From Escherichia coli O157:H7 (GTDB lineage: Bacteria; Pseudomonadota; Gammaproteobacteria; Enterobacterales; Enterobacteriaceae): a DNA stretch of 64,000 nucleotides. Below, piece after piece: positions 21,001 to 24,000 of the stretch (position 1 is the stretch's first letter; each line of letters opens with the position of its first letter). Location of the stretch: NCBI RefSeq assembly GCF_013167455.1, contig NZ_CP038328.1; one strand, given 5' to 3'. The position numbers were made by a program.

Positions 21001-24000
21001 AACAGTTCACCCGGAATAACGTTGTTACTGCCCGTTCCCGCCTGAATATTGGCAATCTGCATACTGGTCGCCGGGAAGAATTCATTGCCCTGATCCCACT
21101 CAATAGCCACTAATTCATTAAGGAAAGGTGCTGCGCGATGTACCGGATTGTCAGCCAGATGTGGGTAGGCAACATGCCCCTGAACGCCATGAATGGTTAG
21201 GTTGCAGGTTAACGATCCACGACGACCATTTTTCACCACATCACCTACCACTTCGATACTCGACGGTTCGCCGACCAGGCAGTAATCGAGACGCTCATTA
21301 CGTGCCATTAACGCTTCGACGGCTTTTACCGTACCATTGTGGGCACTGGCTTCTTCATCAGAGGTGATCAGAAATGCCAGTCGCCCTGTATGGTTGGGAT
21401 GTTGTGCGACAAAACGTTCTGCAGCTACCACCATCGCCGCCAGCGAGCCTTTCATATCTGCCGCACCGCGCCCGAATAACATGCCGTCACGAATGGTTGG
21501 TTCAAACGGCGGATTGATCCAACGATCGGCGTCGCCAGGCGGCACCACGTCGGTATGCCCGGCAAAGGCCAATGTTTCACCTTGCCCACGCCATGCCCAA
21601 AAATTCTGCGTATCGGCAAAGTCCATGCGTTCAACGGTAAAACCGATCGCCTGCAAACGTTCAATCAACAAAGCCTGGCATCCTGCGTCATCAGGACTCA
21701 GGGAAGGGCGGCGAATAAGCTGTTGTGTCAGCTCAATAACCGGGCACGACATAGACTACACCTCATGGAAAAATTTCTGATAACTGGAATCACTGAAACC
21801 CAGCAGCATAGGCTTACCAGGCGCGCAGAGCAATGGACGTTTGATAATTGCAGGCATTTCAGTCATTAATGCCGCCGCAGAGGCCGCATCGGTGATTATA
21901 TTGCGGGTGGTTTCGTCCAGTTTACGCCAGGTTGTACCACGGGTGTTGAGTAACGCTTCCCAGCCTAATTCGTTGATAAAACCGTTCAATAATTCGCTGT
22001 CCAGCCCATCGACGCGGTAATCATGAAAACGATAGTCGATGTTATTGGCTTCCAGCCAACGGCGAGCCTTTTTAATGGTGTCACAATTTTTGATGCCGTA
22101 AAGTGTAACCATAATGAATCCTTTTTCGATTTATGAGAATAAATACTCATTTAAGAGTGAAAACATTTTGCCTGCAAATGATTATCAGGAAATATAACAT
22201 TATCGAAGTATTCAAATTAACAGCTATTAAATAATATTAAACATTTTTAACGTAAACATTAAGAATATTCATCTTGTTATCTGTCTGTATTTTAACCAGA
22301 ATTAAATCAGTATTAGATGCCGTATGAATATCTCGAAATGTTGCTGTGTATCACATACAAATCATCACTGCAGGACCATAGTATTTACATAAGGTTTGTC
22401 CCCCGGAGGTAGTCATCGCAGCAATCGAGTAAATTAGCTTCACCACGGTATATTGTTTCCGTAGAATACCCATAATTATAAGAGAGGTTGTTATGATTGA
22501 ACGTGAACTGGGGAACTGGAAAGACTTTATTGAAGTTATGCTTCGTAAGTAATTCCTGAGACAAAGTACAAACAGCAAGAACCCGCTGAGCAGGTTCTTA
22601 ATCGGAAAGTTGAAAAAGGCGACACATTGGCATGTCGCCTTTTTTATTGCTTATTCCGGGCGCGGCTTCAGCGGGAAGCGGCGGCGCACCAGCACAAAGA
22701 ACAGCGGCACGAAGTAAATAGCCAGAATAGTGGCTGAAATCATCCCGCCCATTACGCCAGTACCCACCGCATGCTGACCACCGGAACCGGCACCCGTGCT
22801 GGTTGCCATTGGCAATACGCCGAAGATAAATGCCAGCGAGGTCATCAGAATCGGGCGTAAACGCTGACGGCAGGCGTGGAGCGTCGCTTCAAACAGGTCG
22901 TGGCCTTTTTGGTTCATCTCGTTAGCAAACTCGACGATCAGGATGGCGTTTTTCGCCGATAAACCAATGACCGTTAACAGGCCCACCTGGAAGTAAACGT
23001 CGTTTTCCAGCCCGCGCATCCAGGTTGCCAGCAGCGCGCCGATTACCCCCAGCGGCACGACCAGCATTACCGAGAACGGTACCGACCAGCTTTCATACAA
23101 TGCAGCCAGACACAGGAATACCACCAGCAAGGAAATGGCGTACAGCGCCGGAGCCTGCGCGCCGGAAAGCCGCTCCTGATACGACATCGCCGTCCACTCC
23201 AGACCAAAGCCGTTTGGTAGCTGCTTCACTAACGATTCCATAATATCCATCGCCGTACCGGTACTGACCCCCGGTGCGGCTTCCCCAACAATTTCAACCG
23301 CAGAATAACCGTTATAGCGTTCCAGACGCGGCGAGCCTGTCTCCCAGCGTGAGGTCGCGAAAGCAGAGAAGGGCACCATGCCGCCATCTTTATTTCGGAC
23401 ATACCAGAGATTGATGTCATCTGGCAGCATGCGATACGGCGCAGCTGCCTGCACATAGACTTTCTTCACGCGACCGCGATCCATAAAGTCATTCACATAG
23501 CTCGAACCCCAGGCGGTTTGCAGTGTGTCGTTAATATCGTCGATAGCAACGCCCAGCGCCTGAGCTTTACGCTGGTCGATATCAATCTGCAACTGCGGAC
23601 TGTCATCGAGGCCGTTATGGCGCACACGGGTTAGCTCCGGGTTTTCCGCCGCCAGCGCCAGCAACTGGTTACGTGCTGCCATCAGCGCATCGTGACCTGC
23701 TCCAGCGTGGTCCTGCAACTCCATATCAAAACCTGCAGAACTACCAAGACCGCTAATTGCTGGCGGGCTGCTGGCGATAACGCGAGCTTCTTTAATTTGG
23801 TTAAACGCCTTTGTTGCACGCTCGATAATGGCAAACGAGGTGCCGGTCTTACTGTCGCGTTCGCTCCAGTCTTTCAGGCGGATAAACATTCGCGCCACGT
23901 TTTGCCCGTTACCCCCAGGGCCAGAACCAACAGTGGCAAACACCGACATGATGTTGTCTTTTTCATGGGTGAAGTAATATTTCTCGATTTGCTCAACGAC

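Follow-up and report, generated by a model that had tools for sequence, protein, structure and literature searches.

MgtS and many such small proteins are single-pass membrane proteins. The mgtS gene (yneM, STnc570) and ypfM are laid out alike. Each is read from an orphan promoter-terminator pair into an intergenic, monocistronic RNA of ~150-250 nt that encodes a peptide of fewer than 50 amino acids, and both are small-protein mRNAs that came from the same screens and were first listed as sRNA candidates (PMC2515195). In Salmonella, the orthologous locus between acrD and yffB is STnc250, which appears on Northern blots as a stable, growth-phase-dependent short mRNA of ~220 nt (PMC2515195). In Escherichia coli K-12, ypfM is catalogued as b4606 (YP_001165325.1, 'uncharacterized protein YpfM'). 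Its annotation goes back to the small-RNA and small-protein screens of 2001-2008.

The window analysed here is a 64-kb stretch of E. coli chromosome of O157:H7 type, with 100% sequence identity to O157:H7. The ORF at 22493-22552 (+) is this known small-protein gene, and the full reading given here, of a compact transcription unit of its own between yffB-dapE and acrD (Table 1), has a probability of about 90%. The K-12 gene is the same in all 19 amino acids, position, orientation, promoter, transcription start site (TSS) and terminator. The locus is already known: the gene is annotated, and its transcript, its TSS and its protein have each been seen before. The case is thus a confirmation: a first-pass annotation, read from the sequence without further aid, had found a genuine 19-codon gene with the right boundaries. 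Its discovery value is small since ypfM is already catalogued, and the comparative data bring an uncharacterised protein into clearer view. The same annotation treated the interval between yffB and acrD as one spacer. The coordinates were right, but there are two intergenic regions, yffB/ypfM and ypfM/acrD. The flanking yffB is the first gene of yffB-dapE-ypfN and is divergent from ypfM.

Table 1. Features of the yffB-ypfM-acrD locus in window coordinates.
Feature	Position	Strand	Details
yffB CDS (ArsC-family reductase)	21756-22112	-	ATG at 22112; ORF list, RefSeq annotation
Divergent AT-rich spacer, yffB start to ypfM start	22113-22492		380 bp, GC 0.311
Candidate yffB promoter, extended -10-like motif TGTTATATT (yffB sense)	22191-22199	-	conserved in most genera, spacer alignment
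Conserved block TCGAAATGTTGCTGTGTATCACATACAA, then minor upstream ypfM TSS 22364	22331-22364	+	conservation 0.63-0.83
ypfM sigma-70 promoter	22439-22467	+	-35 TTCACC 22439-22444, 17-nt spacer, -10 TAGAAT 22462-22467
Main ypfM TSS (A)	22474	+	experimental; K-12 2588907(-), mapped by sequence (PMC3415461 supplement)
Shine-Dalgarno AGAGAGG	22481-22487	+	5 nt (TTGTT) before ATG
ypfM CDS	22493-22552	+	ATG 22493, TAA 22550-22552; 19 codons; MIERELGNWKDFIEVMLRK
ypfM 3' UTR body, including hairpin 22577-22599	22553-22612	+	fold results
Predicted bidirectional intrinsic terminator	22613-22645		A5 22613-22617, stem-loop 22618-22639, T6 22640-22645
acrD CDS	22651-25764	-	stop codon 22651-22653; convergent with ypfM; ORF list, annotation

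Coding evidence for ypfM

The ORF carries the ypfM annotation in RefSeq in both O157 and K-12, and its product, MIERELGNWKDFIEVMLRK, is identical to the annotated proteins of both. Between K-12-type strains and O157, the stretch from the spacer to the terminator is ~99% identical, the two differing at a few individual bases of the spacer and the 3' UTR. The ypfM region was found in 5425 of 5426 complete E. coli genomes. Conservation of the peptide across Enterobacteriaceae, which the first-pass annotation had named as a check on its ORF, is borne out at the level of the order: the ORF is retained with a clear coding signature at 73 of 80 Enterobacterales yffB loci, and orthologues across these 73 loci share 12-19 of the 19 residues.

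The coding test used 56 unique nucleotide sequences, in which 8, 5 and 15 columns vary at the first, second and third codon positions, respectively. The codons of L6, F12, I13, L17, R18 and K19 have undergone synonymous changes. The position of the stop is fixed, with TAA, TAG and TGA swapping among loci, and both alternative frames are interrupted by stops (55-56 of the 56 sequences). In the alignment of 42 spacer-class sequences, 41 keep the ORF unbroken. Other ORFs of the spacer (22114-22197, 22133-22234, 22317-22412, 22324-22392 and 22147-22215(-)) were rejected as genes because they are intact in only 2-5 of the 42 related sequences. Judged from these substitution patterns, ypfM is under coding selection across Enterobacterales.

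Top-down mass spectrometry has detected the intact 19-aa YpfM, covered to 100% and carrying fMet, at low Mn2+, and the protein has been quantified by PRM (PMC12529367). That E. coli should lack a ~170-nt RNA or ribosome footprints on 22493-22552, which would refute the gene call, is already contradicted by published data. RefSeq annotation, coding selection and the observed protein thus all uphold the 19-codon ORF claimed from sequence.

A very short ORF with a strong Shine-Dalgarno sequence and hairpins behind it could also be a regulatory leader peptide or uORF that controls a downstream gene, the peptide having no role of its own. Here, however, no same-strand gene follows, and a strong terminator comes next and then convergent acrD. 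Moreover, the amino-acid sequence is conserved through synonymous changes, and not merely the ORF, and the peptide accumulates in cells. We regard the leader-peptide explanation as already refuted by this layout, give it practically no weight and treat ypfM as a protein-coding gene.

Promoters and the AT-rich spacer

The pair TTCACC-17-TAGAAT is the sole promoter-like match in our scan, and Shimada et al. chose identical hexamers for ypfM (PMC3946193). Both hexamers are conserved, and the spacer between them varies in sequence while its length is fixed. The main TSS lies 7 nt past the -10 and leaves a 5' UTR of 19 nt, an arrangement typical of sigma-70 promoters, which have hexamers 17 +/- 1 bp apart and a TSS 6-8 nt downstream of the -10. 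The sigma-70 RNA polymerase starts at A22474 from this conserved promoter, and the mRNA consists of a leader of 19 nt, which contains the Shine-Dalgarno sequence GAGAGG, the 19-codon ORF and a predicted 3' UTR of roughly 95 nt. Conservation of the 5' UTR is 0.87-0.92. The good Shine-Dalgarno sequence noted at first pass is indeed present, but it ends at 22487, so the spacing is 5 nt and not the 7 nt that had been read.

The same annotation had suggested that a discrete small RNA is made here. This is supported by the experimentally mapped TSS at 22474, 19 nt ahead of the ATG (PMC3415461), and by the Salmonella Northern signal of STnc250 (PMC2515195). From this TSS to the terminator hairpin, the predicted ypfM RNA is ~173 nt. 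A second, weak TSS at 22364 would give a 129-nt 5' UTR (PMC3415461 supplement). With this weak start, and with a Salmonella band of ~220 nt that is longer than the predicted ~173 nt, the transcript picture may be more complex.

Because the Salmonella band exceeds the predicted size, we considered whether the conserved CATAGT (22377-22382) could mark a stronger promoter further upstream. This was rejected, as CATAGT has no acceptable -35, transcription starts have been published for 22474 and 22364 and not for ~22389, and the probe of the Salmonella Northern blot maps to the 3' UTR. Inspection by eye of the conserved block at 22331-22360 for regulator sites yielded a CRP match with only one good half-site (TCACA) and unconvincing matches to Marbox, PhoP, PhoB, TyrR, Fur and MntR sites.

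For yffB, no TSS was found in the experimental map of PMC3415461. Shimada et al. picked TTCATA-16-TTTAAT (22328->22301) as its promoter (PMC3946193), a choice by pattern matching in a stretch of low conservation. We prefer the conserved TGTTATATT at 22191-22199 as the candidate yffB promoter, both being putative.

These elements lie in a markedly AT-rich spacer. The first-pass description of an AT-rich stretch of 380 bp proved exact. Its left 218 bp have a GC of 0.243, and the lowest-GC 200-bp segment of the 64 kb starts at 22106 (GC 0.235; 0.02% of such segments are as low). The overall GC of the window is 0.536, compared with 0.235-0.31 in the spacer. Elsewhere in Enterobacterales, at loci with ypfM immediately next to yffB, the spacer is 200-1044 bp long with a GC of 0.28-0.50, and its middle (22200-22320) is poorly conserved between genera.

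The AT-rich tract had also been proposed as a zone bound by nucleoid proteins. Genomic SELEX supports this in vitro, as it lists the ypfM<>yffB spacer both for an H-NS site and for binding by the RpoD holoenzyme (PMC3946193). Matches to the high-affinity H-NS motif TCGATAAATT with up to two mismatches are not above chance across the window (64 against 50 +/- 7 expected), and the spacer has only two, both with two mismatches. The spacer would bind H-NS in vivo as it does in vitro, and since both divergent promoters lie within it, H-NS would dampen the two genes, ypfM and yffB, jointly.

A spacer with the lowest-GC stretch in 64 kb, an H-NS SELEX site, a poorly conserved middle and a length of 200 to 1044 bp across genera might instead be a remnant of mobile DNA or of DNA gained by horizontal transfer, silenced by H-NS for that reason, and not a dedicated regulatory region. 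However, it has no terminal repeats or element-like inverted repeats, and a search for a mobile-element or repeat origin returned no meaningful repeats there. A long low-GC spacer sits at the same place in nearly all Enterobacterales loci examined, with conserved promoter-like footprints for both flanking genes and no conserved ORFs inside. A mobile origin is thus very improbable, and a regulatory spacer with two divergent promoters is the better description.

The 3' UTR and the predicted bidirectional terminator

The Rfam family RF01409 (STnc250, 'Hfq binding RNA') matches 22532-22651 over the full model (1-94) with 37.5 bits and E ~5e-6, which does not reach the gathering cut-off of 42 bits. 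The model spans the last ~22 nt of the ORF, the 3' UTR and the terminator. Compared with STnc250, the E. coli 3' UTR is ~26 nt longer and has a different inner hairpin. Owing to this insertion, the E. coli sequence stays below the cut-off and is not filed as a formal member despite its positional orthology. Rfam matches to CsrC, STnc240, STnc320, RNase P and CRISPR-DR41 were set aside as weak hits, due to the terminator only or to chance.

The STnc250 match raises the question of whether the transcript is mainly regulatory, that is, a non-coding or dual-function Hfq-binding sRNA whose 3' UTR and terminator act in trans and whose ORF is secondary. STnc250 cDNA was enriched 4-fold in a Salmonella Hfq co-immunoprecipitation (24 vs 6 reads; PMC2515195), and the hairpin, A/U-rich stretch and U-tailed terminator at the 3' end are typical of Hfq-bound RNAs. 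The enrichment is modest, however, and Sittka et al. 2008 themselves reclassified STnc250 as a small mRNA (PMC2515195). The strong coding selection on the ORF and the detected protein also speak against this explanation, as does the 3' UTR itself. Its body is, terminator aside, the least conserved part of the locus (0.17-0.51 identity between genera), and its 22553-22610 portion differs even among Escherichia lineages; the locus alignment revealed no conserved seed region in that portion. A mainly regulatory RNA is accordingly improbable, and a purely non-coding role is essentially excluded, so the transcript is best read as a small mRNA, which may have a secondary role as an RNA.

The inner hairpin of the 3' UTR (AAGAACC/GGTTCTT, 22577-22599) folds at -9.6 kcal/mol with z = -1.9 and is therefore unremarkable alone. 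It had been described as a GC hairpin; the hairpin is there, but it is not GC-rich (3 G-C pairs among the 7 of the outer stem).

The element that follows has the design known from bidirectional Rho-independent terminators of convergent genes, namely one G+C-rich palindrome with an A-tract on one side and a T-tract on the other. The 7-bp G+C-rich stem encloses an 8-nt loop, and the 12-nt arms are 100% complementary. Predicted folding energies are -18.7 kcal/mol on the plus strand and -18.0 kcal/mol on the minus strand, with none of 200 shuffles as stable on either strand. A stable G+C-rich hairpin with a U-run is thus found on both strands, between convergent genes. In contrast to known bidirectional terminators, the design here is read from sequence and the minus-strand U-run is shorter (U5, then CAAC). 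The element ends 5 nt from the acrD stop.

The conservation scan covered 74 sequences, namely the 73 loci and the window. A perfect stem occurs in 60 of the 74, in 24 distinct versions that show compensatory changes. Of these 60 sequences, 57 have A at 4 or more of 6 upstream positions, and all 60 have T at 5 or more of 7 downstream positions. ypfM is absent from the supplements of PMC7815308, in which RNA 3' ends were looked for. The A5-stem-T6 terminator claimed at the acrD stop is bidirectional in its design, given the symmetric tracts, the equal stability and the conserved stem with compensatory changes. Its structure and conservation suggest that ypfM transcription would end at the hairpin (22618-22639) and U6, and that the opposite reading of the palindrome, from A-tract to U5, would end acrD transcription. 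With one palindrome ending both genes, a single element would insulate the convergent pair.

The YpfM peptide and its neighbours

Across Enterobacterales, YpfM hardly varies. Its invariant residues (I2, L6, W9, F12, I13, M16 and L17) fall on one helix face, and the variable positions 4, 8, 11 and 15 lie on the opposite face, 115-175 degrees from the direction of the hydrophobic moment. This moment is 0.546, compared with 0.27 +/- 0.13 for shuffled peptides. YpfM has a mean hydrophobicity of -0.12, is net neutral and appears amphipathic, and is therefore probably soluble, in contrast to MgtS. We infer a soluble, net-neutral amphipathic alpha-helix. The 19-aa product accumulates in cells and keeps its formyl-methionine. 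With the invariant residues on one face and the variable ones opposite, docking of the hydrophobic face on a larger protein seems most likely, although this rests on the sequence pattern only.

At 71 of the 73 loci, ypfM is followed by an acrD-like gene in convergent orientation. The arrangement acrD-> <-ypfM yffB->, tightly linked throughout the order, would fit a wider role of the locus but does not show one. Near-invariance, amphipathicity and synteny with acrD and yffB-dapE give concrete experimental handles on YpfM. We see a small chance that the locus does more than encode an orphan peptide, either as a dual-function mRNA or through a helix that modulates the product of a neighbour. In the former case, the Hfq-bound module of 3' UTR and terminator may target either other RNAs or the complementary 3' end of acrD. 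In the latter, the 19-aa helix may be dedicated to the AcrD pump or to YffB/DapE, by analogy with AcrZ on AcrB.

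Identity and coding capacity of ypfM

The region between yffB and acrD carries ypfM, an ordinary small-protein gene that is already known and was correctly recognised by the first-pass annotation. The layout proposed there is borne out by the sequence and the ORF list. RefSeq annotates yffB, ypfM ("protein YpfM") and acrD in this region, and the K-12 MG1655 counterpart of the ORF is b4606, "uncharacterized protein YpfM"; the gene names are therefore right as well. The sequence matches E. coli O157:H7 chromosomes at 100% identity, and 5425 of 5426 complete E. coli genomes contain this region. 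By its sequence, its synteny and its coding behaviour, the locus is ypfM itself, not a mere look-alike.

Features of the yffB-ypfM-acrD region (window coordinates)
Feature	Position	Strand	Basis or conservation
yffB	start 22112	-	sequence and ORF list
yffB/ypfM spacer, 380 bp	22113-22492		sequence
TGTTATATT (TG-n-TATATT, extended -10-like)	22191-22199	- (yffB sense)	conserved across most Enterobacteriaceae
ypfM ORF, 19 codons, MIERELGNWKDFIEVMLRK	ATG 22493, TAA 22550-22552	+	sequence and ORF list
Inner hairpin AAGAACC...GGTTCTT	22577-22599		sequence
Perfect 12-nt inverted repeat AAAAAGGCGACA / TGTCGCCTTTTT	22613-22644		repeat analysis
acrD stop	22651-22653	-	

We compared 80 yffB loci across Enterobacterales, with each species represented by a single genome. 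Of these, 73 carry a divergently oriented ypfM ORF upstream of yffB, Dickeya, Yersinia and '[Erwinia] mediterraneensis' among them, and in 71 of these 73 it is 19 codons long. In an alignment of 56 distinct nucleotide sequences, 8, 5 and 15 columns vary at codon positions 1, 2 and 3, respectively. Leu6 is encoded by CTG, TTA, CTA, TTG, CTT and CTC, Leu17 by CTT, TTG, CTG, CTC and TTA, and Phe12, Ile13, Asp11, Arg18 and Lys19 also vary synonymously. The stop position is fixed with TAA, TAG and TGA interchanging, and both other frames contain stops in 55-56 of the 56 sequences. The ORF is intact in 41 of 42 related sequences, compared with 2-5 of 42 for five other short spacer ORFs. The 19-aa protein has been detected intact by top-down proteomics (100% coverage, initiator formyl group kept) and by targeted PRM (PMC12529367). 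Together these data show strong purifying selection on ypfM and translation of its 19-aa peptide. Missing conservation or expression had been named as grounds for rejecting the ORF; given the conservation and the detected protein, neither refutes it.

Two orthologues differ in length. In Lelliottia nimipressuralis (locus L029) altered penultimate and stop codons lead to read-through and a 30-aa product, MIERELGNWKDFIEDMLRNDLQEELQEHLI, and Yersinia nurmii has a 20-aa version with final residue A.

YpfM has a mean hydrophobicity of -0.12, and its four acidic residues are balanced by four basic ones, which makes a membrane helix unlikely. Its helical hydrophobic moment is 0.546 versus 0.27 +/- 0.13 in shuffles, a value reached by 2.6% of them. 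In helical projection the invariant I2, L6, W9, F12, I13, M16 and L17 form the hydrophobic face, and the sole variable positions (4, 8, 11 and 15) lie 115-175 degrees from it. Judged from sequence, the most economical mechanism would be for the peptide, as an amphipathic helix, to dock on a larger protein. It is improbable that ypfM has a secondary RNA role or is linked to AcrD or YffB/DapE.

Transcription and termination of ypfM

The gene is transcribed from a sigma-70 promoter with a 19-nt leader. TTCACC-17-TAGAAT at 22439-22467 is the only sigma-70-like site found by a promoter scan within 21900-22800, and RpoD genomic SELEX led Shimada et al. to these hexamers too (PMC3946193). Across genera, both hexamers are conserved, the 17-nt spacer between them keeps its length but not its sequence, and the leader after the promoter, CATAAT(T/A)ATAAGAGAGGTTGTTATG, hardly varies. 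A genome-wide TSS study in K-12 lists in its supplement a ypfM TSS with a 19-nt 5' UTR and a second, weaker one with a 129-nt 5' UTR at window position 22364 (PMC3415461). Mapped by flanking sequence, the former corresponds to A22474, 7 nt past the -10. The Shine-Dalgarno AGAGAGG ends 5 nt before the ATG, which corrects the 7-nt spacing reported earlier. Just upstream of the -35, AATC(A/G)CAG(C/T)(A/G)AT(C/T)GGTTAAAT at 22411-22435 is conserved and shows partial dyad symmetry, in the form ATCGC-A-GCGAT or ATCAC-A-GTGAT depending on the species. This may be a site for an activator or a UP-like element.

The predicted RNA, from 22474 to the U-run end, is about 173 nt and folds at -46 kcal/mol (z = -2.9). 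The orthologous Salmonella transcript is catalogued as STnc250 and recognised as 'ypfM small mRNA'; it appears as a ~220-nt band, stable and dependent on growth phase, and shows 4-fold Hfq enrichment (PMC2515195). This is more than the ~150-175 nt expected for a transcript from the main start; the upstream start or imprecise sizing may explain the gap. The Rfam STnc250 model matches full-length at 22532-22651 with 37.5 bits. The E. coli gene is the positional orthologue of STnc250, yet it scores under the gathering threshold of 42 because its 3' UTR is longer. The inner hairpin (-9.6 kcal/mol, z = -1.9) is unremarkable by itself and, contrary to its earlier description as a GC hairpin, is not G+C-rich. 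Outside the terminator, the 3' UTR shows the lowest conservation anywhere in the locus (0.17-0.51 in the alignment), which argues against a conserved trans-acting seed. Set beside the coding signature, a purely non-coding sRNA is excluded or unlikely.

The terminator folds at -18.7 kcal/mol (+) and -18.0 (-), and 0 of 200 shuffles are as stable on either strand. A scan of 74 sequences (the 73 loci and the window) finds a perfect stem in 60; most others have this element in mismatched form. In all, 24 distinct stems occur, showing compensatory changes (GGCGACA/TGTCGCC, GGCGACT/AGTCGCC, GGCGGC/GCCGCC, GGCGTCC/GGACGCC, GCAGCAACC/GGTTGCTGC). Among the perfect-stem terminators, an A-rich run (at least 4 of 6 A) precedes the stem in 57 and a T-run (at least 5 of 7 T) follows it in all 60. 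The conserved upstream A-tract is needed by a two-way and not by a one-way terminator, and we infer termination in both directions at the shared palindrome. An acrD-like gene lies convergent and downstream of ypfM in 71 of 73 loci; in this setting, ypfM as a leader peptide is excluded or unlikely. Weak partial Rfam matches to CsrC on both strands at 22611-22649 (E 4e-4 to 1e-3) arise because both terminators end in AAAAAGGCGAC...GTCGCCTTTTT, and we dismissed a CsrC homologue as generic terminator resemblance.

The seven yffB loci lacking a ypfM ORF (L052, L056, L068, L073, L074, L075 and L078: Erwinia, Lonsdalea and three Enterobacteriaceae) have no acrD homologue within the fetched flanks either. 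In Dickeya oryzae (locus L080), ypfM adjoins yffB without acrD. The co-occurrence of ypfM and acrD is confounded by phylogeny.

The AT-rich spacer and the yffB side

The spacer has a GC content of 0.311, and the 200-bp stretch from 22106 (0.235) is the lowest in the 64 kb (mean 0.536; 0.02% of windows as low). The sole other part with 200-bp GC below 0.32 is 37236-37551 (minimum 0.275). A long low-GC spacer is also the rule elsewhere, typically about 385 bp (200-1044 bp, GC 0.28-0.50) where ypfM directly flanks yffB; the 1543 bp in Yersinia nurmii probably contain another gene. Repeats pointing to a mobile-element origin of the spacer were not found, and a foreign-DNA scar is excluded or unlikely.

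In genomic SELEX, the spacer is bound by RpoD and contains an H-NS site (PMC3946193), and Salmonella ChIP-seq places a MarA peak at ypfM<>yffB (PMC10268841). The nucleoid-protein-bound regulatory zone suggested by the first-pass annotation therefore has in vitro and compositional support; scanning for the high-affinity H-NS motif gave no signal above chance. H-NS would damp both divergent promoters.

In an alignment of 42 sequences, the conserved islands are the yffB ribosome-binding site, TGTTATATT, a 30-bp block at 22331-22360 and the ypfM promoter, and the core at 22200-22320 is variable. TGTTATATT, about 70 nt upstream of the yffB ATG, is a candidate yffB promoter and differs from the site that Shimada et al. 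chose by pattern (22328->22301). The published TSS table lists no yffB TSS (PMC3415461 supplement). It does list a dapE TSS with a 270-nt 5' UTR (PMC3415461), which maps to ~22022 (-) within the yffB coding region and thus indicates an internal dapE promoter.

Most genera share the sequence (T)TTC(A/G)AAAT(A/G)TTGCnGTnnGTCACATAAAATTT in the block at 22331-22360, which is adjacent to the minor ypfM TSS and precedes a conserved CCATAGT/CATATT at 22375-22382. A search of the block for known regulator sites gave no assignment, its TCACA resembling only half a CRP site.

In E. coli NZ_CP088131.1 (match H26) and about 15 other genomes the 538-bp region aligns only in part (39% in H26), which suggests that a few strains have an insertion or rearrangement in the spacer. 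The region is plasmid-borne in one case, and some genomes carry it in two places. In a source-tracking study, the ypfM intergenic region was ranked as one of the host-informative polymorphic loci (PMC11267920).
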